From positions 2,924-66,923 of the forward strand of contig JAJEHF010000215.1 in the NCBI GenBank assembly GCA_022823865.1: a stretch of 64,000 nucleotides of DNA, read 5' to 3'. This document shows positions 43,884 through 64,000 of this stretch, piece after piece (positions within the stretch are counted from its first letter, which is position 1; each line of letters begins with the position of its first letter). The translations under genes were made by a program, and so were the position numbers. The notes under the pieces were generated by a model. It had not been told where the DNA came from. It worked only from the letters and a program-made list of their open reading frames with translations, and did no database searches. The DNA is from Bryobacterales bacterium (GTDB lineage Bacteria; Acidobacteriota; Terriglobia; Bryobacterales; UBA6623).

Positions 43884-43924
43884 GGCGGTCGATTTCCCAT
43901 TGTGGCGTATATTCGGACACAGGC

Positions 43925-44845: not shown

Positions 44846-45733
44846 CTATGCTTCGATCCGGACTCGACCGCGGTCGAAGTCCCGTTTCAGGTGGCTATAT
44901 GGGTGGCGCCGGTCCTGCGGTCGCTTCAGCTTGACGCGTTCGACCCAGTCCTCATACGCGATTCCGGGATTCTGGAGAATGATCTCGAACGCAATGAATC
45001 TGTGGGAATCCGGTTGGTATGGATTCGCCTCAACCGTCGGAAACAACCGCTTTCCCTTAATGTCCCGCCAAAGTGGCCGATTGCTCACGGATTGAGACTG
45101 ACGGCGCTTCTCACGGATCTGAATCTGATAGTCGGCCGTCTCCTGAAGCGGTATGACCTGCTGCACGTCGAGGAATACGCTGTTGTCGTGCTTATACGCC
45201 GAGAGGCGGACGCATCGGATGTCGAGGTCGCTATCGTTTAGCCACATCACGGTCGTGGTGATCTCTTTCGAGAAGCCTTGGCTGACCAAGACGATTCGAA
45301 CGTTGCGCGCGAATCTCTCTTCATCCGCCTCGGCCCAACCTAGGAACTCAAGAATCAGCTGTTGCGGGTCGGATTCATCCTTGGTCGGATCCATGAAGTC
45401 GCGATAAGCTTCGACGGCCTGTTGGAACGTCATTGCGGACACCATCGCCGCATAGCGCAGCGCTTGTAGTTCCATATGGCCACCGTCCTGCGTGCGCTTC
45501 AGCTCGATGACGACCAGATCCCCACTGCGGTCCAGCCCGAGCAGGTCAATGCGTCTCGAGCTGCTGTCCCACTGGCTGTATTCCTCCGAGATGATGAGGG
45601 TATCCGGGGAGACGATGTCAATCTGGTCGCGAAGGATTCGCTGAAGATCCTCAGCTTCGCGGATCCCTTCCTGAACAAGCGACGTGTCGGCGAGTCGGTC
45701 GAGACCGTTTCCTGCCAACCGGTCGAGTGCCAT
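44846..45733 (-). CDS. PD-(D/E)xK (NucS/DUF91-like) nuclease-domain protein
   Basis: ...RRIDLLGLDRSGDLVVIELKRTQDGGHMELQALRYAAMV... carries the D...E-x-K nuclease core. The gene looks AT-richer than its neighbours by eye. Confidence 0.6.
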   Translation of the reverse strand: MALDRLAGNGLDRLADTSLVQEGIREAEDLQRILRDQIDIVSPDTLIISEEYSQWDSSSRRIDLLGLDRSGDLVVIELKRTQDGGHMELQALRYAAMVSAMTFQQAVEAYRDFMDPTKDESDPQQLILEFLGWAEADEERFARNVRIVLVSQGFSKEITTTVMWLNDSDLDIRCVRLSAYKHDNSVFLDVQQVIPLQETADYQIQIREKRRQSQSVSNRPLWRDIKGKRLFPTVEANPYQPDSHRFIAFEIILQNPGIAYEDWVERVKLKRPQDRRHPYSHLKRDFDRGRVRIEA

Positions 45734-48854: not shown

Positions 48855-49369
48855 TGGTTCGATTCTACCGAGCGCCCAGGTCGTCCCCGCGTTGGCTAGG
48901 GAGAATTGAAGATTCTGAGCGTGTGCACGTGGCACCAAAGTCAGATCTGAGCGTCGCTTGTCTGTTCGTATCGAGACCCTGGCCAACCGTCCGAAGACCA
49001 AAACGAGGCCTCTGGGTGACGCCTGCAAAGGGAGCTTCAAGGCGTGATCGGTGCCATCGAGTATTGCCGGAAGATGTGACCTTCGTCCGTCGCAGGTGGG
49101 GCAGACCGTCGCTGCGGGGGCCAAGGAGGCCACCGCTCGTCGGCTAGAAGAGGCACCGCGTTCCTGCGCGACCTCAATGACACCAGCCGACGTCGGAGAG
49201 CATTTGCGCACAATGGAAAATAGGCATCGATACTGGGACCGGTCGAGGCCCGAGTCCCAGACGCTGTTCTTTCCGCGGCCACCGCGCGGCTCGCTGTGGT
49301 GACGCGGTGGACCGGTGGGTTTCGCGATATAGGCGTCAAGGCCGTGATTCCCGGGACCGCTGGGCTGCT

Positions 49370-52300
49370 ATGAGAATCATTTCCAACACCGGCACTGATC
49401 GCGTGGTCGATATCGTCCGGCCCAAGCTTCTGGCCGGTAATCGACTCGACCTCGCTTCCCAAACGCTATCGCTCTTTGCCTTTGGCGAGCTTGCCGGAAA
49501 TCTGGCTCGCTTAGCGGGCGCACGACTCATCCTGCCAACCGACGATACTGAGATCGATCTTCTGGGATCGAATGCGGACCGGTCCGCCCGCAATCGTCTG
49601 CAGGGGCGCTGGCTGGCCAGCCGTTGTGCGGCTTGGATCGAGAAAGCGGTCGACGTGCGCAAAGCAAACGGATCGATACCTCAGGGGGCCATCGTGCTGC
49701 GTGACGGCGATGGCCGTGCTGGGCAGGCCCTGCTCGGCTCGTTTTCATTCAGCACCGACGGGCTCGGCCTTGCACCGGGAAACTCGCTCAATCTGATTCA
49801 GGCTTCTGAGACGCCCGGAGAATGTGATCGGCTGGGCCTATGGTTCGATGCGCAATGGTCTGAGATGAGAGAAGAGACCGCCGCAAAGCAGGATCTCGTG
49901 GCGGCTCTGCGCTGTCTTGCTGCGCACCGCGCCCCATCCAGCATCTACGCGCTGATCCTGCACCACTTGTTCCGAACGGAGGGCGGCGAACTCGATGAAG
50001 AGCGAGTCGTAAAGTCGGCGACCGGGATTCGCGACACGGAAGTCTGGAAGAGACTGTTCAAGTTCCAGCGTGACGGGGTAGTTGGGGCCATCGACAAACT
50101 AGAGCAGTTCGGAGGCTGCATCATCGCTGACAGCGTAGGACTTGGCAAGACCTTCGAGGCGCTCGCGATCATCAAATACCACGAGCTCCGCAACGACCGC
50201 GTGCTTGTGCTCTGCCCGAAGCGGCTACGCGACAACTGGACGCTCTATCGCGCTAATGATCGACGCAACTTCCTGGCGGGCGACCGCTTCAATTACGACA
50301 TTCTGAATCACACCGACCTGTCTCGCGATGGCGGCTTGTCGGGCGATATTGACCTTTCCCATGTCAATTGGGGCAACTACGATCTCGTCGTAATTGATGA
50401 GTCGCACAACTTCCGCAATAAGCGTTCGCCACGTCAGGGCGGAGAGACACGGTACGACCGCCTCATGCACCGGATCGTCCGCGATGGCGTGAAGACTAGG
50501 GTCCTCATGCTCACCGCCACGCCCGTGAACAACCGTTTGGCCGACCTACGCAACCAGATCGCTTTCGCTACCGAGGGCAACGACACAGCGCTCGCGGATC
50601 ATGGTGTGTCCAGCATTGACGGCACGACGCAGCGTGCGCAGAAGCAGTTCAACCGCTGGCTCGAACTGGACGAAACCGAGCGTACGCCGACCCGGCTCGT
50701 CGACATGCTGGGGTTTGATTACTTCGCGTTGCTGGACCGTCTCACAATCGCCCGATCTCGCCGACATCTCAAGAAGTACTATGGCTACAGCGAGAGCGGG
50801 CGCTTCCCGGAGCGCCTCAAGCCGATCAACGTAAAACCGGATGTTGATCTCCGAGGAGAGTTCCCCTCGATCCGTGAGATCAATGCGGAGATCCGCCGCC
50901 TGAACCTCGCTGCCTACGCACCGCTCCGCTATATCCTGCCGCACAAGCGAGAGGCATACGACGAGAAATACAGCACCCGACTGCGCCGTGGAGGCGGTAC
51001 CTTCCGGCAACTGGACCGCGAGGAGAGCCTCGTCCAACTTCTCCGCGTGAACGCGCTCAAGCGAATGGAGAGTTCAGTCGCTTCGTTTACCTTGACGGTG
51101 CAGCGCCAGCTTGCCGATGTCGAAGCACTCTTGGCGCGTATCGAGGACCAAGCCGAAGAACTCGAGGAACTCGACATCGCGGACATAGATGTCGAGGACC
51201 CTGAGTTTGAGAGCCTCCTTGTAGGTCGTAAGGTCAAGGTTCTGCTTCAGGACGTTGATCTAGTCCGATGGCGGCAAGACTTGGTCGAGGACCGCAACCG
51301 GCTGGAGACGCTTCGTGCTGTGGCCGCACAAGTGACCTCCGACCGCGATGCCAAGCTCATTGAACTACGCGCAACAATCGAGCGAAAATGCCGCGACCCG
51401 ATCAACATCGGCAATCGCAAAGTCATTGTGTTCACTGCATTTGCCGACACCGCCCGTTATCTCTACGACGCGCTGGCACCCTGGGCACATGACCACTTGG
51501 GGGTTCAAGCCGCACTGGTTACCGGCGCGGGCCAAAATCAGGCAACCTTGTCTGGTCTTCGGCGTGATCTCGCATCCATCCTGACCGCCTTCGCGCCACG
51601 GACCAAGGAACGTCCGGATGACCTGGCGGCCGAAGGCGAGATTGATCTCTTGATCGCAACCGACTGCATCTCCGAAGGGCAGAACCTCCAAGACTGCGAC
51701 TGGCTCATCAACTACGATATCCACTGGAACCCGGTACGCATTATTCAGCGATTCGGCCGTATCGACCGCATTGGGTCACCCAACGATCACATTCAGCTCG
51801 TCAACTTCTGGCCCAACATGGAGCTTGAAGAATATCTCCGCTTGGAACAGCGCGTGAGTGGCCGCATGGTGCTTCTCGATATTTCGGCGACCGGCGAGGA
51901 GAACCTGATCGAGCAGCAGGCAGGCGACCCAATGAACGATCTGGTCTACCGACGCAAGCAACTCCTGAAGCTCCAAGATGCGGTGATAGATCTGGAGGAC
52001 TTGTCGTCGGGGGTCTCCATCGCCGATTTAACGCTGACCGATTTCCGGATCGATCTGGCGCACTATCGCAGGACCGATCCCGACGCATTGGACTCGGCTC
52101 CTCACGGTATGCATGCGGTCACCGTCACAGCTGATGAGGATATCCCGCCAGGAGCAATATTCTGCCTACGCGCAGAAGGAAGCGCAGCAGAGCATCACTT
52201 CCAGTCGAATTACCCTCTAGCGCCGCACTATCTGGTTCATGTCGGCCAGGACGGATCCGTGCTCTTGCCGTTCACTAGGGCCAAGGCGGTTCTCGACCGC

Positions 52301-52567
52301 CTGAAGGGGCTATGTGTGGGCAAGGACATGCCCGATCCGAGTGCCTGCGCTCGATTCGATGCCGCCACCCAGCAAGGCAAGGATATGCGGGCCGCGCAGC
52401 GGTCGCTGGCCGCCGCGGTTACCTCTATTGTTGGAACGGGCGAGGAACGCGCGATCGCCAGCCTGTTCTCTCCGGGAGGGACGCACGCGATCGCCGGCGA
52501 GTTCGCTGGAATGGACGATTTCGAGGTGGTGGCGTTTCTCATCGTGCTACCGGAGGACTTAGCTTGA
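49370..52567 (+). CDS. SNF2-family helicase with an extra ~180-aa N-terminal domain (PLD-like?)
   Basis: Start at MRIISNTG (49370). SNF2 motifs ADSVGLGKT, VVIDESHNFRNK and QRFGRIDRIGS. First gene of the defence operon. Confidence 0.85.
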   Translation: MRIISNTGTDRVVDIVRPKLLAGNRLDLASQTLSLFAFGELAGNLARLAGARLILPTDDTEIDLLGSNADRSARNRLQGRWLASRCAAWIEKAVDVRKANGSIPQGAIVLRDGDGRAGQALLGSFSFSTDGLGLAPGNSLNLIQASETPGECDRLGLWFDAQWSEMREETAAKQDLVAALRCLAAHRAPSSIYALILHHLFRTEGGELDEERVVKSATGIRDTEVWKRLFKFQRDGVVGAIDKLEQFGGCIIADSVGLGKTFEALAIIKYHELRNDRVLVLCPKRLRDNWTLYRANDRRNFLAGDRFNYDILNHTDLSRDGGLSGDIDLSHVNWGNYDLVVIDESHNFRNKRSPRQGGETRYDRLMHRIVRDGVKTRVLMLTATPVNNRLADLRNQIAFATEGNDTALADHGVSSIDGTTQRAQKQFNRWLELDETERTPTRLVDMLGFDYFALLDRLTIARSRRHLKKYYGYSESGRFPERLKPINVKPDVDLRGEFPSIREINAEIRRLNLAAYAPLRYILPHKREAYDEKYSTRLRRGGGTFRQLDREESLVQLLRVNALKRMESSVASFTLTVQRQLADVEALLARIEDQAEELEELDIADIDVEDPEFESLLVGRKVKVLLQDVDLVRWRQDLVEDRNRLETLRAVAAQVTSDRDAKLIELRATIERKCRDPINIGNRKVIVFTAFADTARYLYDALAPWAHDHLGVQAALVTGAGQNQATLSGLRRDLASILTAFAPRTKERPDDLAAEGEIDLLIATDCISEGQNLQDCDWLINYDIHWNPVRIIQRFGRIDRIGSPNDHIQLVNFWPNMELEEYLRLEQRVSGRMVLLDISATGEENLIEQQAGDPMNDLVYRRKQLLKLQDAVIDLEDLSSGVSIADLTLTDFRIDLAHYRRTDPDALDSAPHGMHAVTVTADEDIPPGAIFCLRAEGSAAEHHFQSNYPLAPHYLVHVGQDGSVLLPFTRAKAVLDRLKGLCVGKDMPDPSACARFDAATQQGKDMRAAQRSLAAAVTSIVGTGEERAIASLFSPGGTHAIAGEFAGMDDFEVVAFLIVLPEDLA

Positions 52568-53322
52568 CATCGTTCGATCCCTTCGTGGCGCTCGCGATCC
52601 CCCCTGACGCGCTCGTCGACCGCCGCGTGCCCAAGACGCTGCTGATCGAAAATGGCGCGTTCGCTGCGGGAGACCGGCGGCACATCCAAGAGGGGATCGA
52701 GGAATTGAGGTGGCTTGCGGCACTCAAGCCGACGACGATCAGCATCACCGAATATCGTGATGCCGAGCGGGAGTATCTTGAGATTGCCGTTCTGAAGCTC
52801 AATCTACGTCCAGCCGCACGAGGTGATCGCCTCGTCGAACTGGTTCACCGCGCCGTCCCCTATCCGGTGTTGCTGATCGCTTGGCGGGACGGGACGCCCG
52901 AGATCTCGCTCGCCCACAAGCGTCGGTCTCTGGGTGAAGCGGACAAGACAGTGATCGATAGCGAAATCTTTGTGGCACGTGCCTGCGGCGACCAGGCAAA
53001 CGCGCTGGTCATGTCGTTCCGGGATGCTCTCTCCCTAGCACGACAGCCCCGGCACACACTCCACGCCTTGTATCAGGGCTGGATCGATACTGTCCAAGCG
53101 TTCCGGGCGGCAACGATCACCGGCGCATTTCGCCTTCCCGCCACGACCCCAGCGGCGGCCGACCGGGAAGCCGCTCTCCGGGAATACCGCGATCTCAATG
53201 CTAGGATCGCCAATATACGTTCCGCGGCCAGCAAGGAGAAACAGATGTCCCGCCGGGCCGACTTGAACATCGAACTTGCGCGCCTGCGCGCACAGCGCGA
53301 TTTTGCTCGTGCCAGACTGTGA
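52564..53322 (+). CDS. DUF4391-like protein
   Basis: The TTG start overlaps the SNF2 stop (TTGA at 52564-52567). The layout (...VPYPVLLIAW...ISLAHKR... and C-terminal KEKQMSRRADLNIELARLR) matches my memory of DUF4391 proteins that sit between SNF2 and methylase genes. Confidence 0.6.
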   Translation: MTSFDPFVALAIPPDALVDRRVPKTLLIENGAFAAGDRRHIQEGIEELRWLAALKPTTISITEYRDAEREYLEIAVLKLNLRPAARGDRLVELVHRAVPYPVLLIAWRDGTPEISLAHKRRSLGEADKTVIDSEIFVARACGDQANALVMSFRDALSLARQPRHTLHALYQGWIDTVQAFRAATITGAFRLPATTPAAADREAALREYRDLNARIANIRSAASKEKQMSRRADLNIELARLRAQRDFARARL

Positions 53323-53336
53323 AGGAGATTCGCGTC

Positions 53337-55325
53337 ATGGAGAAGATTATTGCCGGTGAACCGCAGGCCCGCTCGGCGGATATCATCGCCGACAATCTCG
53401 AAAGGCTGAAGGCCTTGTTTCCTGAGGCATTTACTGAAGGCAAGGTAGATTTTGCGGTGCTACGGCAGCCTCTCGGCGACAACGTGGACGAGAGTGATGA
53501 GAAATACGGCCTCAACTGGTACGGGAAACGCCGTGCACGGCAGCTAGCGCTCACACCCTCGCTTGGGACATTGCGCCCCTGTCCGGAGGAAAGCGTCGAT
53601 TGGGATATGACACAGAATCTGATGATCGAGGGCGATAATTTGGAGGTTCTAAAGCTCCTTCAGAAGAGTTATTCAGGTAAGGTCAAGCTTATCTATATCG
53701 ACCCTCCCTACAACACCGGTAAGGATTTCGTCTATTCGGACAATTATCGTGACAATCTACAAAACTACTTAGAGAGTACCGGGCAAACCGACAGCAGTAA
53801 CAGCGGTACGTTTTCATCAAACTCTGAGACCTCTGGAAGATTTCATACCTATTGGCTCAATATGATTCTACCGAGGCTGTACCTTGCTAGGTCACTGCTA
53901 CGGAAAGACGGAACAATCATGATCAGCATTGACGATACTGAAGTTGCTCATGTCCGACTAATTATGGACGACATTTTTGGCCCTGAGAACTTTATCGCCG
54001 AAATAGTCTGGGAGGGGGCCAACAAGAATGACGCACGGCAGATAGGCATTTGCCATGAGTACGTCATAGTATATGCCAAGAACCGTGAGAGCCTTCAGCG
54101 CGACTGGGGGTTGGACAAGGAGGGAGTGCAACCCGTACTCCAAGAAGTAAAACGCCTCAGAGGTTTACACGGCACCGATTACTGTGCGGCTTCTGAAGAT
54201 CTGGCAGGCTGGTTCCGAGCCAACAAAGCCAAACCAGCATTCGCAAATCGCCGGTTCAGAAATATTGATGCAAGGGGTGCGTACAAGGAGGATGATCCGA
54301 CCGCACCGGGGGGACGAAAATTCGAATTGCGGAATCCAAGGACTGGACAAGTTATTCCTCTCAGACAAAATCGAGGGTGGAGCTTTGACCAAGAGAGATT
54401 CGATCGGTTAGTGGGAGATGGAAGAATCACATTCGTGACGGAGACGAGCGTAATGGTTCGTCGTTATTTGCACGAGACGGACAAGCTAACTCCTCCAAGT
54501 GTCTTCTATCAGCCAGCACGTTCTGCGTCGGAACGACTCAATCGCATGATGGGTGCGCAGATTTTTGACTACCCGAAGGATGAAAGCATTTTAGGAAAAT
54601 TCATACAAATGGCGACTGACGATGACCCAAACGCTATTGTGATGGATTTTTTTGCTGGATCCGGTACGACAGGGCATGCTGCATTGGAACGAAATTCGTT
54701 AGATAATGGCAATCGTCGCTACGTCCTTGTTCAGCTTCCTGAACCACTTGACTCAAAGAAGAGCCACCAGAGAGCCGCTACCGATTACTGTGACGAACTC
54801 CGTAGACCACGCAGTATCGCCGAACTCACGAAGGAGCGTCTGCGCCGCGCGGCGCAGAAAATCAAGGATGAGAATCCCGAGTACACCGGCGATCTCGGCT
54901 TCCGCGTCTTCAAACTCGATACATCCAACATCCGTGCGTGGAATTCGAAGCCAGACAATCTGGAAGGCGCACTGCGTGCGGCTCTCAACCATGTCGAATC
55001 GGGCCGCACCGAAGAGGACATTCTCTATGAGCTGCTTCTAAAGCTCGGTCTCGATCTCTGCGTTCCCATCGAGACCCGGACGATTGCCGCTAGGGCCGTG
55101 CATGCGGTTGGTGCCGGAAGCCTGATTGCCTGCCTCGACGAGGCGATCTCCAGCGACGAGGTTGAGCCGCTAGGGGCTGGCATCGCTGACTGGCATGACA
55201 TCCTCGATCCCGCTGGCGAATCCACTGTTGTCTTTCGTGACAGCGCGTTCGGCGATGACGTCGCCAAAACGAACCTCACCGCAATCCTTGAGCAACGCGG
55301 TCTCGGAAATGTCCGAAGCTTGTGA
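53337..55325 (+). CDS. Site-specific DNA methyltransferase, beta-class N6-adenine (type III Mod-like)
   Basis: Motif IV IYIDPPYNTG precedes motif I DFFAGSGTTGHAA. AAGGAG RBS 9 nt upstream of the ATG. This is the AT-richest part of the operon by eye. Confidence 0.9.
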   Translation: MEKIIAGEPQARSADIIADNLERLKALFPEAFTEGKVDFAVLRQPLGDNVDESDEKYGLNWYGKRRARQLALTPSLGTLRPCPEESVDWDMTQNLMIEGDNLEVLKLLQKSYSGKVKLIYIDPPYNTGKDFVYSDNYRDNLQNYLESTGQTDSSNSGTFSSNSETSGRFHTYWLNMILPRLYLARSLLRKDGTIMISIDDTEVAHVRLIMDDIFGPENFIAEIVWEGANKNDARQIGICHEYVIVYAKNRESLQRDWGLDKEGVQPVLQEVKRLRGLHGTDYCAASEDLAGWFRANKAKPAFANRRFRNIDARGAYKEDDPTAPGGRKFELRNPRTGQVIPLRQNRGWSFDQERFDRLVGDGRITFVTETSVMVRRYLHETDKLTPPSVFYQPARSASERLNRMMGAQIFDYPKDESILGKFIQMATDDDPNAIVMDFFAGSGTTGHAALERNSLDNGNRRYVLVQLPEPLDSKKSHQRAATDYCDELRRPRSIAELTKERLRRAAQKIKDENPEYTGDLGFRVFKLDTSNIRAWNSKPDNLEGALRAALNHVESGRTEEDILYELLLKLGLDLCVPIETRTIAARAVHAVGAGSLIACLDEAISSDEVEPLGAGIADWHDILDPAGESTVVFRDSAFGDDVAKTNLTAILEQRGLGNVRSL

Positions 55326-55351
55326 AAGCAAGTAGAGCCCAATTGAGCATC

Positions 55352-56125
55352 ATGGCCCGCCGACACCACTACAGGAATCCTCCCATCGAGGAGGCACTCT
55401 GCGAGTTTCGCTTCGAGCCTGGGCGAGACTGGAATCTCACGATTCCAGGAAGGCTGCAAACGGTTCTTGGGGAGGCTTACTCCGGCAGGCCAAGAGAACA
55501 GAGGGCTATTGAAGTAGATCTAGGTCTGGGAAGTGCCCTGCCTTCCGGTTTGCAATTCCGGCAGGGGCTCGCCAAGGTTCAGTTGGTGACCGCAGATGGA
55601 AAGCGGTCAGTAGGCGTGGGGAAAGACTCGCTCAGTGTCCACATGTTGCGACCGTACCAGCGGCAAAGCGAGGAAAGCCAAGCTGGCTGGGACGAATTCA
55701 AGTTACGGATATCGGAAGCACTGGATGCCTACTGGAAGGTGGCTCGCCCCAAAGGTGTCAAGCGGGTCGGCGTCCGATACATCAATAAGCTCGTGGTCCC
55801 TAGTGGCAGCATCGAGCTTGAAGATTATCTTGCTTGTGGCCTTCCCCAAACTACAGCGCTGCCAGAGACCGCGAGCAGCTTCGTCAGTCGAGTGGAGTAC
55901 GCTTTCCCTGGTCCGGTGCGTCTGATCCTGACACTCGGCACTGTTCCGGCCTCACGGGAAGGCGTCCAAGAGTTGTTGGTGGATCTCGATGTCATCCGGG
56001 AGGATGCCGAGCCACTGGATCAACGTCAGGCAAGCAAGGTGGTTGAAGAGTTGCGGGCTAGGGAGCGCCAAGTGTTCGAATCTGTCATTACAGACAAGGC
56101 GAGGAGGCTGTTCGATGCGGATTGA
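55352..56125 (+). CDS. TIGR04255-like uncharacterised protein
   Basis: The N-terminus MARRHHYRNPPIEEALCEFRF matches the Y.n.PI.EA..E.RF start that I recall for the TIGR04255 family. ~257 aa. An alternative GTG at 55322 would overlap the methylase stop. Confidence 0.55.
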   Translation: MARRHHYRNPPIEEALCEFRFEPGRDWNLTIPGRLQTVLGEAYSGRPREQRAIEVDLGLGSALPSGLQFRQGLAKVQLVTADGKRSVGVGKDSLSVHMLRPYQRQSEESQAGWDEFKLRISEALDAYWKVARPKGVKRVGVRYINKLVVPSGSIELEDYLACGLPQTTALPETASSFVSRVEYAFPGPVRLILTLGTVPASREGVQELLVDLDVIREDAEPLDQRQASKVVEELRARERQVFESVITDKARRLFDAD

Positions 56126-56840
56126 ATCAAAGTCCATTGCTTCTGCCAGAACTTGGACGGCCGACCAGGCAACCTCGGCAACTCCGGATCGTTCACACCG
56201 TTCATCGAAGGATTCTCGGATCGTGGCACTAGGAAACGACTCGCTCGCGACGCTTCCCGATGCAGCGGTGTTGAGAATGGCTACGCTCGAAGCCAGACTC
56301 GCATCGTCCCTTCGATCGGATGCAATGAGCCATGCGGCGTGGTCGCCGCCGACCAGTGATTCCGGTGCTCTGCCGGAGATCCTGAGCTACCTGGCGAGCA
56401 CTGACGAACAACGTTGTGTGGAGCCTGTCGCTCATGCACAACTTGAGCGGCAATTGCAAAATGCCTTCGAACGCCAACCGTTTGAAGACGGAATCGATCA
56501 TGCCGCGGACGACATAATTCAAGAGGCATTGCAAACACCCTACCAGCACGTCGCGCTGGAGTGGCTACGGTCGTTCGCCCTAGACACAGAGAATCCTGTG
56601 TTTGCTGCCTCCACGCTGAGGTGCCTTGGGCGCGTAGAGAACTTGGGCACCCCTATATGGAGAACCGAGCTCGTGCGGGAGGGCCTGATGATGGAGGACC
56701 TTGAGATGCGGGATGCTGCGATTCAGACGGCGGAGAATTGGGGAGACAGGGAGATGGTCGAGGTTCTCCAAGCGCATACCGAATCGAACAGTTTGCTCCG
56801 CAGATATGTTGAAGATGTGATCAGCGATCTGAGCGAGTGA
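56115..56840 (+). CDS. Hypothetical protein with C-terminal HEAT/ARM-like repeats
   Basis: ATG at 56115 with a GAGGAGG RBS 7 nt upstream; overlaps the previous gene by 11 nt. The C-terminus ...MEDLEMRDAAIQTAENWGDREMVEVLQAH... is HEAT-like. Confidence 0.5.
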   Translation: MRIESKSIASARTWTADQATSATPDRSHRSSKDSRIVALGNDSLATLPDAAVLRMATLEARLASSLRSDAMSHAAWSPPTSDSGALPEILSYLASTDEQRCVEPVAHAQLERQLQNAFERQPFEDGIDHAADDIIQEALQTPYQHVALEWLRSFALDTENPVFAASTLRCLGRVENLGTPIWRTELVREGLMMEDLEMRDAAIQTAENWGDREMVEVLQAHTESNSLLRRYVEDVISDLSE

Positions 56841-56843
56841 TCG

Positions 56844-57356
56844 ATGTCGATGTTCGTGGCACGCAAGATTTCGAGCTCAAAATGGGAGAAGCATCCTGAG
56901 TTCGCCGAGGGCGAAATCCAGGCAGATGCGGTGACCGCCGACCTACGGACCAATAAAAATGTGCTTTCGTTCTGGCGTTGTCAAAGCGGCGAGATTACGG
57001 ATGTCGAAAACGTGGCTCTGGCAATCGCAGCGGCAGCGGACCGCATCGAGAAAGTCGATGTGGTGTGGCTGCCCACCGACCAGCTTCTCGAAGATCGCCA
57101 GACATTTATGGACAGCCCCGGCCGGACCCCGGTCGCCGATCTCGTTGATAGTCACGTGGACCTCAGCAGACTTGATCTCGTGCGGCTTGGGCGGCTCGCG
57201 AACCGGGTAGTGGAAGCTATCGGAGCGGGCCGTACACAACGAGTTCCCAGAGCGCGGGTAAAGAGCCTCCTAGTGAATGCCGTACTAACGAATCGAATCG
57301 AGCCCGAGCGGCTGTCGGAGAAGATTCGTAGGGCTCTGAATGCCGAGGGAGGCTAA
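56844..57356 (+). CDS. Hypothetical 170-aa protein
   Basis: Begins 3 nt after the previous stop. The N-terminus ...ARKISSSKWE....EIQADAVTADLRTNKNVLSFW... recalls an unnamed family I have seen in defence islands, but I cannot assign it to a family. Confidence 0.45.
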   Translation: MSMFVARKISSSKWEKHPEFAEGEIQADAVTADLRTNKNVLSFWRCQSGEITDVENVALAIAAAADRIEKVDVVWLPTDQLLEDRQTFMDSPGRTPVADLVDSHVDLSRLDLVRLGRLANRVVEAIGAGRTQRVPRARVKSLLVNAVLTNRIEPERLSEKIRRALNAEGG

Positions 57357-57359
57357 CTG

Positions 57360-57614
57360 GTGCATAGGCGTCAGACTATTCTCTGCTCAAGCAACCAAGA
57401 TCAATCGTTCGTTGCCGAGGTCCCCGAGACACGTAGGGGCATGAAGTTGGGCGCTGATCAGGGAACTGTCCACCGGCGCGTCATTGACGCGATGCAGTTC
57501 TGGATCGAACAGGCACAGGAACGGGGACGGCCCCTCCTGCACCCTAACGGCCAACTCCTGATGCTCGCCGACCGCGTGTGGCAACAACCACAGCAAGCAC
57601 CTCTCCAGCCATGA
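57360..57614 (+). CDS. HicB-like (antitoxin-fold) small protein, diverged
   Basis: GTG start with a GAGGGAGG RBS 7 nt upstream. ...SFVAEVPETRRGMKLGADQGTVHRRVIDAMQFWIEQAQERGRPLLHP parallels the HicB pattern ...fvAevPeLpGc.a.G.T.eEA....eA...wie.a.e.G.piP.P. Its stop overlaps the Res start (ATGATGA). Confidence 0.45.
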   Translation: MHRRQTILCSSNQDQSFVAEVPETRRGMKLGADQGTVHRRVIDAMQFWIEQAQERGRPLLHPNGQLLMLADRVWQQPQQAPLQP

Positions 57615-60337
57615 TGAAGCTCCGTTTCGAGCCCGACCTCGATTTTCAGTTGCAAGCGGTGGATGCCGTATGCGGTCTCTTCCGCGGTCAGGAGATATGC
57701 CGGACCGAGTTCACGGTCACGCGGGATCCACTGGACCCACAAGAGCGACTGGCGTTTTCTCAGAACGATCTCGGAGTCGGCAATCGACTGACCCTGCTCG
57801 ACGACGAGATTCACGAGAACCTGAAAGACATCCAGCTCCGCAACGGTCTGCCGCCGTCCGAGTCGTTGCACTCGGGGGACTTCACTGTGGAGATGGAGAC
57901 CGGGACCGGCAAGACCTACGTATATCTGCGCACGGTCTTCGAGTTAAACAAGCGCTACGGCTTTACCAAGTTCGTCATCGTCGTGCCGTCGGTCGCGATC
58001 AAGGAAGGCGTCTACAAGTCGCTCCAGATGACAGACGACCACTTCCGTGCGCTCTATTCGGGCACGCCATTCGATTACTTCCTCTACGACTCGACAAAGC
58101 TCGGCCAAGTCCGCAATTTCGCCACTAGCCCGCAAATCCAGATCATGGTGGTAACAGTCGGAGCCATCAACAAGAGGGATGTCAACAATCTCTACAAAGA
58201 CAGCGAGAAAACAGGCGGCGAAAGGCCGATCGATCTCATCAAAGCCACCAGACCTATTCTGATCGTGGACGAGCCCCAAAGCGTGGACGGTGGCCTCGCA
58301 GGGCGAGGCAAGCAAGCCCTCGACGCGATGAATCCGCTCTGTACGCTACGGTACTCGGCGACACATGTGGATAAACACCACATGGTCTACCGGCTCGATG
58401 CCGTTGACGCGTATGAACGCAAGCTGGTCAAGCAGATCGAGGTGGCGTCCGCCAACATCGAAGACGCCCACAACAGGCCCTATGTCCGGCTGATCTCAAC
58501 AAACAACAAACGCGGCGTCGTCAGCGCCAAGGTCGAAGTCGATGTCGAAGTCGCCGGACATGTACGGCGCAGCGAGAGGGCGGTCCACGATGGCGACGAT
58601 CTCGAACAGGAGACGGGGCGGGTAGTCTATCGCGATTGCCGCGTCGGCGAGATAAGGGTTGGGAAAGGAAACGCACTCATTGAACTGCGGGTGCCGGGCG
58701 GCGAGCACTTTCTCCGGGAGGGCGAAGCCTACGGCGATGTGGATGCATCAGCCGTCCAGCGGCAGATGATACGACGGACCATTCGCGAGCATCTCGATAA
58801 AGAGAAACGCTTGCGTCCACAGGGGATCAAGGTCCTGAGCCTCTTCTTCATCGATTCTGTGGAGCGCTACCGTCGCTATGACGATGCGGGCCAACCGTGC
58901 AAAGGTGACTATGCCCGAATGTTCGAGCAGGAGTACCAGCGCCTTGCTCGCCATCCCGACTATGTTTCGCTGTTCGAAGAAGTGGATCTCACAGCGGATG
59001 TCGTAGATGTCCACGATGGCTATTTCTCGATCGACAGGAAGGGGGGCTGGACGGATACCGCCGAAAACAACCAAGTCAATCGCGACAATGCTGAGCGTGC
59101 CTACAACCTCATCATGAAGGAAAAAGAGAAGCTACTGAGCCTCAACGAGCCTCTCAAGTTCATCTTCTCCCATTCAGCATTGCGCGAGGGTTGGGACAAC
59201 CCCAATGTCTTCCAAATCTGCGCTCTGCGGGATATCCACACCGAGCGTGAGCGGCGGCAGACCATCGGACGCGGCCTGCGTCTTTGCGTCAATCAAGGCG
59301 GTGAGCGCTTGCGTGGCTTCGAAGTGAACACGCTGACGGTAGTTGCAAGGGAGAGCTACGAGGAGTTCGCAGAGAACCTCCAACGGGAAATCGAGGAAGA
59401 TACTGGAATCCGCTTCGGGGTCATCGAGCCGCACCAGTTCGCACAGATTCCAGTTATCGACGATGATGGAGCAAAGTCCGTTCTTGGGTTCGACAAGTCG
59501 CAGGTCCTGTTCGACCATCTACAGGCTGAAGGCTACCTCGACGCAAAGGGGCGAATACAGGACTCCCTACGCAATGCGATCAAGGCCGATAGTTTCTCGA
59601 TTCCTCAAGGATTTGTCGAGCAGCGGACTGACATCGGTTCCGTTTTGCGCAAATTCGCTGGTCGATTTGAAATCAAGAATGCAGACGAGCGCCAAGCCGT
59701 CCGCCCGCGCCAAGCTGTGCTGGACGCCGCAGAGTTCAAGGCATTGTGGGACCGCATCAAGCACAAGACTACCTATCGCGTGGCCTTCGACAACAAGGCC
59801 CTTCTAGAAAAATGCGCCGCTGCGTTACGCAAAGCACCACCAATCCCAAGAACGCGGCTGCAATGGCGTAAGGCCGACGTGTCCATCGGTCAGGCGGGAG
59901 TACAGGCTACCGAAATCGCCGGGGCGTCGACGGTCGTTTTAGATGAGGTCGACATCGAGCTGCCAGACTTGCTCACGGAGCTTCAGGACCGGACGCAGCT
60001 CACTCGGCGCAGCATCCACAATATTCTTGTTGAAAGTGGGCGCCTCGACGATTTCAAGCGGAATCCGCAGCAGTTCATCGAAATTTCCGAGCAGGCCGTC
60101 AATAGTTGCAAGCGACAGGCACTCGTGGACGGCATCAAGTACCAGCGAATCGGGGATGAGTCCTACTACGCCCAAGAACTCTTCGAGCAAGAAGAGCTCA
60201 CCGGCTACCTCAAGAACATGCTCGATGCCCAGAAATCGGTCTATGAGAAAGTCATTGTAAGCGGACGTTATATCTCGGTCCGCCGGGACGTAATACCCGG
60301 CCCAGGACTTAAAGTAATACCTCAGCCCAGTTTCTGA
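57611..60337 (+). pseudogene. Type III restriction enzyme Res-subunit helicase, apparently truncated before the C-terminal endonuclease domain
   Basis: Helicase motifs METGTGKTY, ILIVDEPQS and HSALREGWDNPNVF. After ...KSVYEKVI the expected DS.vE...PD-(D/E)xK segment is absent. The last ~26 codons (VSGRYISVRRDVIPGPGLKVIPQPSF) are unrelated, and the DNA there is AT-richer. Confidence 0.65.
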
Positions 60338-60404
60338 CGACCACAACATGTAGTGGTGTAGGCCGCACCTAAAAACGGTCCTGCGCTGGCGCCAACGAGG
60401 TCGA

Positions 60405-60836
60405 CTAGAAGCGGAGGACGCCTCGCGCAACTCGGTCAGATTCGGCTGTCCGGAGGTCAGGCAGGCGTCGTCGCAGAGCCTTCAGCGAGAGCACTGGGTA
60501 GCCGCGCCTGGCCGCTTCGGATTGGTAGCGGCGAAGGGCGGCAGCGACGCTCGAGCGCGGAATTCGCCGGTATTCCGCCGCGAGCAGTTGCAAGGCCTCG
60601 GCGGGCAGCTTGACCCTGGGCCGGCCGCCGCATGGGGCGCCCCGATTACGGTCTAGCGCTCGCGAGTTGCCGAGATTGTTTTCGCGCCATCGCCTCCAGA
60701 GGTACAGGCTGGCCCGGGAGACGTTGCGCTTGCTCGCGACGATGACGGCCGCCGCGCTCCAGCTCATGCCGCTAGCGGCAAGGCGGTCGCAATCGCTCAA
60801 GCACTTAGCCCTGAAGAATCTATCGGGTTGCGGCAT
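60405..60836 (-). CDS. HTH DNA-binding protein; possibly the N-terminal fragment of a Mu/Tn-type transposase or a phage regulator
   Basis: HTH-like ...SGMSWSAAAVIVASKRNVSRASLYLWRRW..., then ...GRPRVKLPAEALQLLAAEY...GYPVLSLKALRRRL..., which resembles Mu-type DNA-binding subdomains. No catalytic domain follows. The start (60836 vs 60896) is uncertain. Confidence 0.4.
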   Translation of the reverse strand: MPQPDRFFRAKCLSDCDRLAASGMSWSAAAVIVASKRNVSRASLYLWRRWRENNLGNSRALDRNRGAPCGGRPRVKLPAEALQLLAAEYRRIPRSSVAAALRRYQSEAARRGYPVLSLKALRRRLPDLRTAESDRVARGVLRF

Positions 60837-60892
60837 GGAGATGATTATACGGCCCCTTGAAGGCCTCTTCAAGCATCGCTGAAGGGCATTTC

Positions 60893-61870
60893 TCACGCCG
60901 TGGGAACCTCCGCCGTGACGCTGGTCGAATAGCCGCCGCCGCTGATCCGGTGCACCGCCCGAACGCAGATCCAGCGACGGTCGAGGCCGTCCCTGAAACC
61001 CTTCAGGCGCAGCTCCGCCTCGGCCGCGACCTCGGGCTTTCCGGGCTCCAGCTCGATCGCCAGCCGGCCGGTGCCGCGCAGCAGCTCTCGCAGTTTCGCG
61101 CGAGCGGCGTCGCGCGCCTCTCCGGAGCTCGGATACAGCCGCCGCAGCGCGTAGACCGGCTCCCCCGATCCCGCCTCCTCGGTGACGCTGCCGGCCGCCT
61201 GAGCGTCGCGCCAGCGCGCCGTCACGGCGCTATAGTCGCCCCTGTCGGCCAGCGAGGCTCGCCAGCGCGAGGCGTCGGCCGGCCCGATCTCGACGGCCGG
61301 CATGCGCCTGCCGGTGGCGCTGGAGGCCTCCCCGCGCGGCACCAGCAGCAGCTTCCCCTCGGCCGGCTTCGCGATCGCGTCGTAGTCGCGGGCGACCCTG
61401 GTCAGCAGGTGCAGGTCGGACTCCTCGGTCTGGTCCAGGTGAGGGATCCGCACCGCTCGCAGGGACTCTCCGACGCGGCCTTCGAGGCCGTGCTCGGAGG
61501 CGATCCCGGCGACCAGCTCGCCGAGCGAAACATCGCTCCAGGAGCGCGACTTGCGAGACTTCAGCGAGCTGCGCATGTCGGCTCCCCGGGCGCGGATCAC
61601 CAGCGTGTCCGGCGGCCCCTCAAGGGCCGTCTCGTCGACCGTGAACTCTCCGGCGGGAGTCATCTTACCGTCCAGCCAGCCCAGCGAGATCGACAGCCGG
61701 GAGCCCTTGCGCGGCAGCGCCACCGCCCCGTCGCGATCGTCGATCCGGATCTCGGCCGAGTCGGACTGCTCGCCCGCCTCGTCGGTCACCGACAGCTGCA
61801 GCAGGCGGTCGCGGATCGCCTCGGTGGCGTCCTGGGACTCGTCGACCTCGATGCGAAAATCGGGCGTCAC
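60893..61870 (-). CDS. Phage late control protein D (P2 gpD-like tail/baseplate hub protein)
   Basis: 325 aa with the gpD-like pattern ...PDFRIEVD...DITDRLLSLSVTDEAG..SD.AEI.IDDRDG... and ...DQTEESDLHLLTRVARDYDA.AKPAEGKLL.VPRG. Confidence 0.85.
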   Translation of the reverse strand: MTPDFRIEVDESQDATEAIRDRLLQLSVTDEAGEQSDSAEIRIDDRDGAVALPRKGSRLSISLGWLDGKMTPAGEFTVDETALEGPPDTLVIRARGADMRSSLKSRKSRSWSDVSLGELVAGIASEHGLEGRVGESLRAVRIPHLDQTEESDLHLLTRVARDYDAIAKPAEGKLLLVPRGEASSATGRRMPAVEIGPADASRWRASLADRGDYSAVTARWRDAQAAGSVTEEAGSGEPVYALRRLYPSSGEARDAARAKLRELLRGTGRLAIELEPGKPEVAAEAELRLKGFRDGLDRRWICVRAVHRISGGGYSTSVTAEVPTA

Positions 61871-61874
61871 GCGA

Positions 61875-62084
61875 TCACTCCCAGAGCCTCACGGCCTCGC
61901 TCCGCCTGCTCTCGGCGGGCAGCTCCGGCAGCTCGATGAGCACTCCGGCCGGCAGCAGCGGGCCCCTGTCCGCCAGCCCGGGATTGGCCTCCAGCACGAC
62001 CTCGGCCGCGCCGGGCCGCGGGCCGTAATGCCGGCGGCTGATGGCGTCGACCATGTCGCCCTCGCTGGTCAGGTACGCGGCCAT
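61875..62084 (-). CDS. Phage tail protein X (P2 gpX-like)
   Basis: 69 aa. ...GDMVDAISRRHYG......VLEANPGLA......LPAGVLIELPE is the gpX/LysM-like pattern. Confidence 0.8.
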   Translation of the reverse strand: MAAYLTSEGDMVDAISRRHYGPRPGAAEVVLEANPGLADRGPLLPAGVLIELPELPAESRRSEAVRLWE

Positions 62085-62087
62085 TGC

Positions 62088-62492
62088 CTAGCCCTCCCCG
62101 TCCTCTCCGTAGAACGCGAGCGAGATCTGGAATTCGACCTTTCGGGGCGCCCCGCCGGCCAGGTGCGCGCTGCCGGTATCGCGGATCCGCGTGATCACCC
62201 ACAGGCCGAGCACCTTCCCGTCGCCGCCCACCAGGCGCAGCGGCTCGCCCTTGGCGGCCTCCGCGCGCATGGCGTCCAGCTGGCCCAGCCCCCCGCGCCA
62301 GGCCGGGTAGATCGTCCCGCGCAAATCGATCGTGTCGTCCCCCGGCCCCAGCCACTGCCGCGCCGGCGTCCGGCCGACGCGGTCCTGCCGGTGCCAGCGG
62401 TATTCCTGCGCGCGAGAAAGCTCGCCGTAGGCCGCCGTCGAGACCGAGAAGGCGTATGCTCCGAGCTTCAGCAGCTGCGCGTCATCCGGCAT
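62088..62492 (-). CDS. Phage tail protein U (P2 gpU-like)
   Basis: 134 aa. ...LGAYAFSVSTAAYGELSRAQEYRWHRQDRVGR.PA.QWLGPGDDTIDL.G.IYP... is the typical gpU pattern. Confidence 0.85.
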   Translation of the reverse strand: MPDDAQLLKLGAYAFSVSTAAYGELSRAQEYRWHRQDRVGRTPARQWLGPGDDTIDLRGTIYPAWRGGLGQLDAMRAEAAKGEPLRLVGGDGKVLGLWVITRIRDTGSAHLAGGAPRKVEFQISLAFYGEDGEG

Positions 62493-64000
62493 CGTAGAGT
62501 CCCTCCAGGCGGCCCTGCCGCTGGGCGTCCTCGAGCTTCTCGATCACGCGGTCCGCCAGCTCCTCGGCGCTCTCCCCGGGCAGCTGCTGGATCGAGATAC
62601 GGACATTCCACGTGACGGAAGGAGCGGGCGCAGGCTCGGGACGGCGAGCCTCGGAAGGCTCGGCGCGGATCTCCGCTGCCGGCAGCGGAGAGTCCGGTGT
62701 CGTGTCCGTATCGCCCGCGGGGATTCCCGCGGCCGCCAGCGGGACCGCCAGCGCCGTCGCGGCAGCGGCCGTCGCCAGGCGGGGCGCGCGCCTGCCGCCC
62801 AGCTGTCGCGCGGCCGGCTTGCCGGACTCCTCGATCCCGGCCTGCTCGATCTTCCCGGCCAGAGCCGGATCGTGGAACACTTGGCTCGCGAAGGAGCCGA
62901 TCTTGTGCCCGGCGAGACCGCCCGCCACGCTGCCGAGGAGCCCGCCGATGACTGTCCCGACGACCGGCACGACCGACCCCAGCGCCGCTCCCAGCGCCGC
63001 GCCGGCCATGGCGCCGCCGATGCCTCCGGCCTCTTTCGTCACTCCGGCCGCCTTCTCCCCGGCGCTGAGCTTCTTGTCGAGCAGCGTGCCGCCTATCGCG
63101 GCCGCCCCGATCAGGGCGCCCGCGATGCCGGCCTTGCCCTTGAGCATGCCGAGCGCCTGCCGGCCGCGGCCGCGGCCGAATTCGAAGACCTTGCCGGCAA
63201 GGCCCCGGAAGCCGCCCTTGCGCAGGCCTCTGAGCTTGTCTCCCAAGCCCCGGAAGCCCCGTCCGGCCTTGCCCGGGGGAGCGCCCCCGGCCGGGCCGCC
63301 GATGGCATCCGCGAGCACCGCTGCCTTGCTCCTGCGGGCCTGTTTCCCGAGGAACGCGATCGCCAGGCCCAGGTTGGTGACGGCGGTAACCACCGGCGCG
63401 GCGATCAAGGCGACGGCGCCGGCGGCTCCCAGGGCGCCGACGAGGATTCGCGTCCAGACGGGCGCCCCCTCCGCGAAGCCGGAGATCTTCTCCGCCAGCC
63501 ACTCGACCATCGGGGCGGCCGCCTCCAGCGCGGGGATCAGAGCCTCCCCGATCTTCAGGCCGACCTCGTTCCAGCGCGCCTCCAGCTTGTCCATCCTGGC
63601 GTCGAAGTTGTCCTCGTCGGCCGCGTCGACCGCGTCGCGCACCGCTTGCGCGCCTCCCTCGCCGGCAGCGCGAATGTCGGCCTCGGCGGCTCGCAGCGCG
63701 TCCGCCTGCCCCCACAGCGAATCGAAGAAGCGCACGGCCTCCTCGGACCCGAAGGCCTGCCTGAGCGCCTCGCCGCGCTCGCTCGCGCCCATGCCGCGGA
63801 ACTCGCGCTGCACCTGCTCGAGCAGGTCCGCCAGCGGCAGGACGTTCCCGCGCGCGTCCAGCGTCCGGACGCCCAGGCCCTGCTCGCGAAAGTACTCGTC
63901 GGCCTTGGCCGCGTTGGCCGCCAGGGCCTTCAGGGCCGTGCCGGCCTCGCCGGCCTCCATCTTCGACTGCAGCATGCCCAGCGCCGCGAACTGCGACTCC
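62482..64000 (-). CDS. Phage tail tape-measure protein (gpT-like), N-terminus outside the window
   Basis: The ORF is open to the window edge. Ala/Gly-rich with a TMP core (...EAGTALKALAANAAKA...) and hydrophobic Gly-rich segments. Overlaps the gpU start by 11 nt. Confidence 0.8.
   Translation of the reverse strand, partial: ESQFAALGMLQSKMEAGEAGTALKALAANAAKADEYFREQGLGVRTLDARGNVLPLADLLEQVQREFRGMGASERGEALRQAFGSEEAVRFFDSLWGQADALRAAEADIRAAGEGGAQAVRDAVDAADEDNFDARMDKLEARWNEVGLKIGEALIPALEAAAPMVEWLAEKISGFAEGAPVWTRILVGALGAAGAVALIAAPVVTAVTNLGLAIAFLGKQARRSKAAVLADAIGGPAGGAPPGKAGRGFRGLGDKLRGLRKGGFRGLAGKVFEFGRGRGRQALGMLKGKAGIAGALIGAAAIGGTLLDKKLSAGEKAAGVTKEAGGIGGAMAGAALGAALGSVVPVVGTVIGGLLGSVAGGLAGHKIGSFASQVFHDPALAGKIEQAGIEESGKPAARQLGGRRAPRLATAAAATALAVPLAAAGIPAGDTDTTPDSPLPAAEIRAEPSEARRPEPAPAPSVTWNVRISIQQLPGESAEELADRVIEKLEDAQRQGRLEGLYDAG

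Follow-up and report, generated by a model that had tools for sequence, protein, structure and literature searches.

An eight-gene type III restriction-modification locus in a Bryobacterales bacterium, read as a composite of separable modules

When eight genes are packed into one array around a methyltransferase and a helicase, do they encode one machine, or have separate systems come to share an operon? The question is raised by a locus at 49370-60337, plus strand, of a stretch of 64,000 nucleotides (nt) from a Bryobacterales bacterium (assembly GCA_022823865.1, contig JAJEHF010000215.1, positions 2,924 to 66,923), referred to here as the window. Eight co-directional open reading frames (ORFs) are tightly packed there. 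A prediction made from the letters of the window (the original prediction) had taken them for one composite eight-part system with unknown adaptors. On balance, we lean towards the second answer, a composite in which three separable modules and one relic lie nested, instead of a single eight-subunit machine. The first module would be a type III Mod and Res pair, Res being an SF2 ATPase whose nuclease has been lost here; the second, an SNF2 ATPase with a translationally coupled DUF4391 protein; the third, a cassette encoding a TIGR04255 protein, a HEAT-like protein and a protein of 170 amino acids (aa), whose ancestral home would be the mod-res junction, where it would be read through from the restriction-modification operon. 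The interest of the locus rests on the cassette and the SNF2/DUF4391 pair and not on the eight-gene arrangement itself. The eight ORFs are the following.

49370..52567, plus strand: G1, Swi2/Snf2-family ATPase, 1065 aa (Pfam SNF2-rel_dom 1.5e-10, Helicase_C 5.9e-13)
52564..53322, plus strand: G2, DUF4391 protein, 252 aa (Pfam PF14335 3.4e-62, full length); its start overlaps the G1 stop
53337..55325, plus strand: G3, type III Mod, beta-class N6-adenine methyltransferase, 662 aa, intact (PADLOC MTase_III 1e-208, profile 5-620/621; Pfam N6_N4_Mtase 2e-27)
55352..56125, plus strand: G4, TIGR04255-family protein, 257 aa, first cassette gene (NCBIfam TIGR04255 2.5e-30, 106 bits against a cut-off of 30, profile 2-251/252)
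56115..56840, plus strand: G5, 241-aa protein, second cassette gene; N-terminal part variable, C-terminal half conserved, helical and HEAT-like
56844..57356, plus strand: G6, 170-aa alpha/beta protein, third cassette gene, of a large uncharacterised family
57360..57614, plus strand: G7, HicB-like small ORF, 84 codons, its own stop lost, running into the Res start
57611..60255, plus strand: G8, type III Res, helicase/translocase part only, 882 homologous codons (PADLOC REase_III profile 1-875/989)

The junctions described in the original prediction are all present. Inspection of the sequence places the SNF2/DUF4391 overlap, TTGA, at 52564-52567, and the Mod start codon (ATG 53337) is preceded by a 14-nt gap with AAGGAG. 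Both alternatives offered for the junction after Mod are real, GTGA at 55322 and a 26-nt gap leading to ATG 55352; homologues and gene calls favour 55352 as the start of G4. Further downstream are the 11-nt overlap of G4 and G5 (56115-56125), the 3-nt gaps at 56841-56843 and 57357-57359, and ATGATGA at 57611-57617. The source is a metagenome scaffold (KELL22-1 scaffold_433, 69.7 kb), to which a Bryobacterales MAG (metagenome-assembled genome) is the nearest genome; its own gene calls agree with the starts of these ORFs and leave the 84-codon ORF at 57360-57614 uncalled. Pfam and PADLOC profiles likewise uphold the identities given to the outer genes (SNF2, DUF4391, type III Mod and type III Res).

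Such tight coupling at all junctions speaks for one integrated, eight-component restriction-like machine, in which the cassette and HicB-like proteins would serve both the type III enzyme and SNF2/DUF4391 as adaptors or regulators. Gene order can be cited to the same effect. Relatives from two other assemblies have the same eight genes in the same order with an intact Res; in L012, a fourth relative, insertion sequence (IS) elements break up the same set of genes. An IS21-type element (transposase and IstB) lies between DUF4391 and Mod in L012 (5593-7868), and several kilobases of IS and other genes lie between its HicB-like gene and Res (12660-19700). These IS-hit junctions also serve as insertion points in L097, L106 and L107/L108. 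We consider the integrated machine unlikely, and the distribution of its parts is what stands against it.

The cassette was surveyed by a scan with the G4 alignment, with one genome taken per species, which gave 80 loci. G4, G5 and G6 occur together and in the same order in 72 of them. By record titles, the hosts span more than 12 phyla and include Acidobacteriota, Binatia, Latescibacterota, Gemmatimonadota, Chloroflexota, Spirochaetia, Nitrospirales, Bacteroidota, Verrucomicrobiota, several proteobacterial classes and others. In 7 of the 72 loci, a type III Mod and Res, both full or nearly full, directly flank the cassette; in 65 it stands without intact flanking Mod and Res. SNF2/DUF4391 is found in three of the seven embedded loci and not in the remaining four, and the G6 stop overlaps the Res start in three (L019, L022 and L047). 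Internal stops in the 65 solo copies number one for G4, none for G5 and three for G6, and the median ratio of nonsynonymous to synonymous substitution rates (dN/dS) over about 60 pairs is 0.16 for G4, 0.22 for G5 and 0.18 for G6. By these sequence-based measures, the solo cassettes are intact and under purifying selection.

About ten further loci have remnants of the mod 3' end and the res 5' end at the edges of the cassette, recognisable at the DNA level and degraded to varying extents. The Mod remnants comprise the last 28-64 codons and end about 30 nt before G4; the Res remnants comprise the first 28-90 codons and start right after G6. At the other solo loci, no trace of a restriction-modification gene was found within 10 kb. 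Embedded, scarred and solo cassettes are interspersed when ordered by sequence similarity, which points to repeated loss of the restriction-modification genes, and the scars make the mod-res junction the only original context for which there is evidence. That the cassette was kept after each such erosion is most simply explained if it is active on its own. Because G6 overlaps the Res start in several lineages, insertion of the cassette into type III operons is old and recurrent. The position between mod and res in several phyla, the overlap of G6 with the Res start and the scars on solo copies, which reveal no other original context, could equally be claimed for the integrated machine; the 65 of 72 species that keep the cassette under purifying selection without intact flanking Mod and Res, and the embedded loci that have no SNF2/DUF4391, contradict it.

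The outer genes, in turn, recur without the cassette. DUF4391 genes were found on 12 plasmids, and six of these loci were inspected. In all six, an SNF2 'helicase-related protein' gene overlaps or abuts the DUF4391 start and is followed after DUF4391 by a type III Mod; Res comes next in four and is lost or fragmentary in two. Nine IMG/VR contigs have the same SNF2-DUF4391-Mod-Res order. DUF4391 is thus directly downstream of SNF2 in 15 of 15 plasmid and viral loci, and the TIGR04255 cassette is present in none of them. The plasmid copies come from Paraburkholderia, Shewanella, Aeromonas and an archaeon, and Acetobacter and Desulforapulum hold partial ones; the range of the module covers Proteobacteria, Thermodesulfobacteriota and one archaeon, in addition to the close relatives of the window. 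Most plasmid and viral loci share 40-54% identity in Mod and 45-72% in Res with the window, and the two most distant viral loci share less. The window has DUF4391 just after an SNF2 gene of the phrog_26785 type, then Mod and Res of the same subfamily in the same orientation, with Res truncated. Families, order and SNF2/DUF4391 overlap are those of the RefSeq plasmid module 'helicase-related protein - DUF4391 - site-specific methyltransferase - DEAD/DEAH helicase', of which Paraburkholderia pOLGA2, Shewanella pSBAL67801, Aeromonas pAhD4-1 and Methanomethylovorans pMETHO01 are named examples; identity to pOLGA2 is 72% for SNF2, 49% for DUF4391, 48% for Mod and 64% for Res. Unlike the window, the plasmid modules have mod and res adjacent or separated by other small inserts, a full-length Res and no TIGR04255 cassette.

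The original prediction had taken SNF2-DUF4391-Mod-Res for a recurrent and mechanistically uncharacterised module. The 15 plasmid and viral loci, together with the close relatives, bear out its recurrence, and a full-text literature search returned no functional study of DUF4391, only two incidental mentions, and no experimental work on the module. The proposal of one eight-part system did not survive the two surveys, since the cassette is autonomous in 65 of 72 species and the four-gene module lacks it at every plasmid and viral locus. What was found is largely the alternative that the prediction itself had named, an independent insertion of the inner genes, in that the cassette is autonomous and the module exists without it. 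PADLOC and NCBIfam profiles assign the whole locus to no characterised system, nor does the literature, and the locus is best described as type III restriction-modification with accessories.

The SNF2 protein (G1) matches the PADLOC model 'HKD+Snf2' (C3a139) at 5.5e-111, with the alignment limited to profile positions 159-947, and the PHROG family phrog_26785, of unknown function, over nearly its full length (1e-243). Its dN/dS is 0.12 and that of DUF4391 is 0.36. The N-terminal 230 residues of G1 show a PLD-like pattern in which an invariant Gln occupies the position of the catalytic His in eight homologues, down to 33% identity, and this part may be an inactivated PLD domain. A single-sequence search of PDB sequences with DUF4391 found no solved relative. 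Since the pair lies upstream of this Mod/Res subfamily in every DUF4391 locus examined, SNF2/DUF4391 could be a second ATP-driven accessory of the type III enzyme that acts as a loader, an activator or a checkpoint, by analogy with DrmD in DISARM and MtsA/MtsB in MANTIS. On several plasmids, a small ORF of 65-85 aa, annotated as helix-turn-helix (HTH) in one case, lies directly upstream of SNF2 (L094 5536-5733; L095 5337-5573; L096 5310-5546; L005 6469-6726) and may encode a controller protein; no counterpart of it was found upstream of the window SNF2 gene.

Mod retains the beta-class motif order, with IDPPYNTG before FFAGSGTTG in its translation, and contains no simple-sequence repeats that would suggest mod phase variation. 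Its central part differs from the rest of the gene.

53937..54776, plus strand: target-recognition domain of Mod, residues about 201-480 (break in identity against relatives; G+C 0.42-0.54)

Residues 201-480 share 30-45% identity with the closest relative, L109, and 55-82% with a locus from an Entotheonella MAG, L025. Against L109, the C-terminal end of Mod is 90-100% identical and the N-terminal part 62-93%. The synonymous divergence (dS) of Mod is 1.5, compared with 0.15-0.4 for the neighbouring genes. Exchange of target-recognition domains is common in restriction-modification systems, and the pattern of identities in Mod indicates that its domain was swapped by recombination; the specificity of the window Mod is therefore probably unlike that of its closest relatives. 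This swap also accounts for the "AT-richer centre" of the original prediction. The locus, with a G+C content of 0.47-0.60, does lie below its flanks, but the minimum falls inside Mod (53.5-55.0 kb) and the inner four genes have 0.56-0.59, so the AT-rich centre is the exchanged domain and no feature of the inner 'insertion'. In several restriction-embedded cassette loci (L019, L033 and L044, Mod region 8000-9975), Mod is split into two ORFs or shortened, which reflects either pseudogenisation or frameshift errors in long-read MAGs.

Res (G8) carries the SF2 motifs GTGKT, DEPQ and QTIGRGLRL (Pfam ResIII 4e-10), and its helicase part matches EcoP15I Res (PDB 4ZCF) at 9e-59. The alignment to the 1037-aa Res of Paraburkholderia pOLGA2, at 64% identity, reaches only residue 882 of the 908 encoded in the window, which pairs with residue 916 of pOLGA2. 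The lost segment contains ...YDSDVE...NPDWAV...FV(A/V)ETK in pOLGA2 and in a Bryobacterales orthologue, and the missing PD-(D/E)xK nuclease domain amounts to about 118 codons, some 354 bp of res. Pfam RE_endonuc (PF19778) is found in the Res of relatives and not in the window copy, and a search for the nuclease domain across the whole window found no trace of it (best E-value 0.8). The DNA homology of ten Res relatives stops at one base, 60255, beyond which two other features follow.

60256..60404, no strand given: foreign DNA fused to Res, probably the terminal part of a phage-derived element; the final 27 codons of Res and the stop (60335-60337) are read from it
60405..64000, minus strand: P2-like phage tail cluster, 73-75% G+C, running off the end of the window (Pfam Phage_GPD, PhageMin_Tail; gene calls)

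The original prediction had missed the loss of the nuclease domain. An EcoP15I-type Res that lacks the PD-(D/E)xK domain cannot cleave DNA, so the restriction arm of the window copy is very probably dead. The loss would stem either from insertion of the phage element or from an adjacent deletion. Judged by the known domain organisation of EcoP15I-type enzymes, methylation and ATP hydrolysis are presumably retained. Res is intact in the two closest relatives (994 and 1000 aa), one of which comes from a sister sample, and the same host genes follow it in both; genes for a 154-aa protein, PSCyt and DUF1501 neighbour the end of res in relatives. Orthologues with an intact Res are located at about 6.568-6.580 Mb of OZ242276.1 and on JAJEIX010000184.1 (GCA_022828025.1). 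With the restriction arm broken in the window, these orthologues are the ones suited to experiments. A chimeric metagenome assembly was considered for the junction and rejected, because the junction recurs in four assemblies drawn from two samples. Just inside it are the short direct repeats GGACGTTATA and GGACGTAATA, 23 nt from each other. From the junction outwards, the tail cluster encodes a 163-aa MuA-like DNA-binding ORF (phrog_310, transposase, 1e-8; Pfam HTH_Tnp_Mu_2 0.0026), gpD, gpX, gpU, tape measure, tube, sheath and baseplate proteins; the gene calls name Tail_X, GpU, TAC, tube, sheath and baseplate V/W/J/I. Taken together with L112 (1-11600), the cluster makes up a complete tail module in P2 order (baseplate V/W/J/I, sheath, tube, chaperone, tape measure, U, X, D) that ends in the 163-aa ORF and lies in a genome of about 62% G+C; it could be a prophage or a tailocin.

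The truncation raises the possibility that the whole locus is an inert relic on its way to deletion, in which nothing has been selected since Res was lost and the operon structure is merely inherited. Besides the Res without a nuclease and the invasion of the 3' end by a phage element, the nearly neutral evolution of G7 and the eroded Mod and Res of many related loci agree with that view. We regard it as quite unlikely. Seven of the eight ORFs are uninterrupted and have a dN/dS of 0.11-0.36 against a relative at a dS of 0.15-0.4, values that average over the time before the truncation; in addition, the catalytic motifs of Mod are intact, and elsewhere the cassette is maintained without Res.

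The one relic of the composite would be G7. Its orthologues in L011 and L012 are 70 aa long and 41-46% identical to it, compared with 72-91% for the neighbouring genes. The L012 orthologue, 46% identical to the window ORF, carries Pfam PF15919 (HicB_lk_antitox), and the window copy has no Pfam match. The dN/dS of G7 is 0.90 against the nearest relative and 0.75 and 0.61 against others, compared with 0.09-0.36 for the other seven genes. It is not found in the 65 solo loci nor in five of the seven embedded ones, a distribution that, with its almost neutral evolution, also counts against the integrated machine. No HicA partner is annotated on any called gene of the window contig (L001), L011 or L012, and the gene upstream of G7 is the unrelated 170-aa G6. 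The status of G7 as a functional gene is doubtful; it is probably a decaying or fast-changing passenger, and within the composite proposed here it would be an optional one that evolves almost neutrally. The "four-gene insertion" of the original prediction is thus correct as a count of the ORFs between Mod and Res, but it resolves into a conserved three-gene cassette and one doubtful extra ORF. Assemblies of the same population (L002, L003 and L009) break in or next to G7, at about 57324, 57639 and 57270, which suggests co-existing strain variants. The stretch at about 57270-57640 is the most strain-variable, with 79% nucleotide identity to the sister strain compared with about 86-95% in its neighbours, Mod excepted.

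The cassette proteins belong to large families. G4 has 462 homologous cluster representatives at E<=1e-5. Its AlphaFold2 (AF2) model (pLDDT, the predicted local distance difference test score, 80.6) comprises two beta-alpha-beta(n)-alpha halves of the TBP/Bet v1/AdoMetDC kind, and a literature search for TIGR04255 returned no mention. Distant loci match G5 only over the C-terminal ~110-150 residues; G5 shows a weak Pfam HEAT_2 match (0.004) at residues 149-229, one homologue has PF13646, and the 11-nt overlap between G4 and G5 is also found in the solo locus L013. The G6 family has 2640 cluster representatives at 50% identity with E<=1e-3. The best 150 of these are nearly all stand-alone proteins of about 170 aa, and among them a deep profile search found no fusion partner informative on function. 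The AF2 model of G6 has a pLDDT of 93.7; the invariant polar residues are R7, K13, W14, D28, R35, S42, W44, T95, H104, D106 and D111. Searches of PADLOC, Pfam, NCBIfam and PHROGs with G5, G6 and G7 gave only the weak HEAT_2 match of G5 and, for G6, phrog_10743 (function unknown, 1e-22).

Distant G6 homologues, at 25% identity, end three-gene cassettes of similar gene sizes on the plasmid pYWS30-1-6 and in the phage Ab105-1phi. The plasmid cassette is nearly the only cargo of its 7.5-kb mobilisable Acinetobacter plasmid and has similar junctions (a 14-nt overlap, then a 2-nt gap); the phage cassette is found at the accessory end of temperate Acinetobacter phages. On the Thermus brockianus plasmid pTB1 (L007, 708-2777 and 7120-12031), a TIGR04255 protein of 32% identity is encoded in a defence-rich stretch. 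It is flanked by an Argonaute gene and VapBC on one side and cas6 on the other, and the next gene, for a 147-aa hypothetical protein, is neither G5 nor G6.

Our preferred reading of the cassette is a self-contained conflict module, either toxin-antitoxin-like or of the abortive-infection type. Its autonomy and mobility, its patchy spread across phyla, its occurrence on a minimal plasmid and within accessory regions of prophages, and its survival once its neighbours decay would all suit such an element. In this scheme G6 would act as effector, with the HEAT-like G5 binding or inhibiting it and the TBP/Bet v1-like G4 as a sensor; each of these roles is a guess. More broadly, we propose, tentatively and with less than even confidence, that the trio is an undescribed and widespread autonomous abortive-infection or addiction system, ancestral at the type III mod-res junction and outliving the operons there, and that SNF2/DUF4391 is an ATP-driven loader or checkpoint in a dual-ATPase arrangement like that of MANTIS.

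Several results weigh against the composite reading as a whole. The 125 ORFs that flank solo cassettes fall into 95 Pfam families, none seen more than three times; they are mostly housekeeping genes and well under one in ten looks defence-related, which disfavours a defence-island system. The overlap of G6 with the Res start in several lineages and the scars point to a long and specific association with type III operons, which may stem from functional dependence instead of hitch-hiking. A fold search of PDB with G4 gave one weak match, to AdoMetDC (E 8.6e-5, TM 0.29), and one with G6 gave none in PDB (best E 0.65) or BFVD (best E 0.025); profile searches with G4 and G6 against PDB sequences also found no match. 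G4, G5, G6 and DUF4391 have no PADLOC match, and the searches gave no biochemical function for them. By hhalign and NCBIfam, gene 1 of the Acinetobacter cassettes is not detectably a TIGR04255 member, so the plasmid and phage parallel comes down to G6 at 25% identity. As to the outer genes, the PLD-like nature of the SNF2 N-domain is read from a sequence pattern. Neither the other end of the phage element nor the lost 3' piece of Res was found, so that insertion and deletion cannot be distinguished.

The same neighbourhoods invite an explanation in which the cassette is no conflict system and is instead a small-molecule-binding, metabolic or regulatory trio that was carried into restriction-modification operons. 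Solo copies amid housekeeping genes such as ThiC, PdxJ and aminotransferases, with few defence neighbours, are in line with this, as is the fold class of G4 (TBP/Bet v1/AdoMetDC-like), which is typical of ligand binders; the many hosts that are sponge-associated MAGs by record name suggest a niche-specific trait. We find such a trio improbable. A patchy distribution over phyla at about 50-59% identity throughout points to horizontal transfer, and the cassette has repeatedly been embedded in restriction operons. No metabolic neighbour is conserved, G6 matches a PHROG family, and proteins related to it are encoded by a minimal mobilisable plasmid and in the accessory regions of phages. The apparent sponge-associated MAGs, again by record names (within L014-L093), are a large share of the genomes with a cassette and include Binatia, Latescibacterota, Entotheonella, Spongiisociaceae, Porisulfidus and RHO/CAR/jk18 bins; across phyla, their cassettes are about 50-59% identical to that of the window, which suggests exchange among the inhabitants of sponges.

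Returning to the composite of modules, we compared its parts with known systems. The locus resembles type III restriction-modification (EcoP15I/EcoP1I) in its full-length Mod with beta-class motif order and in a Res whose helicase part aligns to EcoP15I. It departs from that type in having mod and res separated by four ORFs (2285 nt, Mod stop at 55325, Res start at 57611), SNF2/DUF4391 in front of mod, and a Res without the C-terminal PD-(D/E)xK nuclease. Type III enzymes are further characterised by hemimethylation at an asymmetric site and by cleavage that requires a pair of unmodified sites in inverse orientation. DISARM class 1 also links an SNF2 ATPase to an N6-adenine methyltransferase, and DrmD models are the second-best PADLOC matches of G1. 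We rejected this assignment, as G1 scores 157 bits with the DrmD equivalog against a cut-off of 610 and neither DrmB (DUF1998) nor DrmC (PLD) is among the eight proteins; with DrmA, G1 has only a weak generic helicase match. As to HicAB, the L012 orthologue of G7 carries the HicB-like antitoxin domain PF15919; no HicA is annotated and the window copy lacks a Pfam match. PrrC, a single anticodon nuclease encoded in the EcoprrI type Ic operon, is a separate conflict module set among restriction genes and co-expressed with them, as the cassette would be, and is checked by its type I host enzyme; the insert in the window differs from it in comprising three genes of uncharacterised activity and in surviving the loss of the host operon.

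The best functional analogy for the outer module is MANTIS (Gao_RL, BREX-related type 2), with which it shares the four-gene logic. In MANTIS, a hemimethylating N6A methyltransferase depends for loading and activation on an accessory ATPase and a small co-regulator, and restriction falls to a helicase-nuclease; its components include MtsA (DUF499 AAA+), MtsB (DUF3870) and MtsD, an active HKD nuclease fused to SF2 (bioRxiv 10.64898/2026.09.23.753747). The window differs in its SNF2 protein with an apparently dead PLD-like domain, its DUF4391 partner and a nuclease of the PD-(D/E)xK type. Identity with MANTIS/Gao_RL was rejected, there being no DUF499 or DUF3870 match and an invariant Q in place of the PLD His in G1. 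Defence genes are known to insert inside the hmaABC operon, an insertion hotspot (PMC11232893). The cassette would resemble those insertions as a separate conflict module embedded in a defence operon and co-expressed with it; identity of the locus with Hma itself was rejected on family content.

The SNF2-DUF4391-type III module is a compact bacterial and archaeal relative of the methylation defences that use an extra ATPase (BREX, DISARM and MANTIS), and with it the contribution of a second ATPase to a well-understood restriction enzyme could be tested cleanly. No function is on record for the cassette, a large trio of protein families, and the confident predicted fold of one member has no solved counterpart. 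Both are good uncharacterised targets. Intact cassettes with mod/res scars are, moreover, an unusually clear natural experiment in which a passenger outlasts the defence operon that hosted it, a pattern relevant to the building and erosion of defence islands.

Upstream of G1, one more feature was delimited by DNA homology.

49133..49369, plus strand: upstream leader (homology to the Bryobacterales relative L011 from about 49133 and to L012 from about 49182)

The leader is the left edge of the island and probably holds the operon promoter and 5' untranslated region. Scans of the locus for promoters and terminators gave nothing above shuffled controls and so decided neither on co-transcription nor on an internal promoter, and an Rfam search of 48.5-61 kb found no match. 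The non-coding gap on the left, put at about 500 bp in the original prediction, measures 368-515 bp depending on the start chosen for the left gene. The island has a G+C content of about 57% and the rest of the window one of about 62%, compared with the 73-75% of the phage tail cluster. About 3.6 kb to the left of the operon, a NucS/Cas4-like nuclease gene (44846-45733, minus strand) is a candidate single-gene system in PADLOC (PDC-S11, 1.3e-105, profile 1-219/347). It adjoins a SprT-like protein, with 43823-44767 (plus strand) listed alongside, and the wider region around the operon may be a loose defence island.

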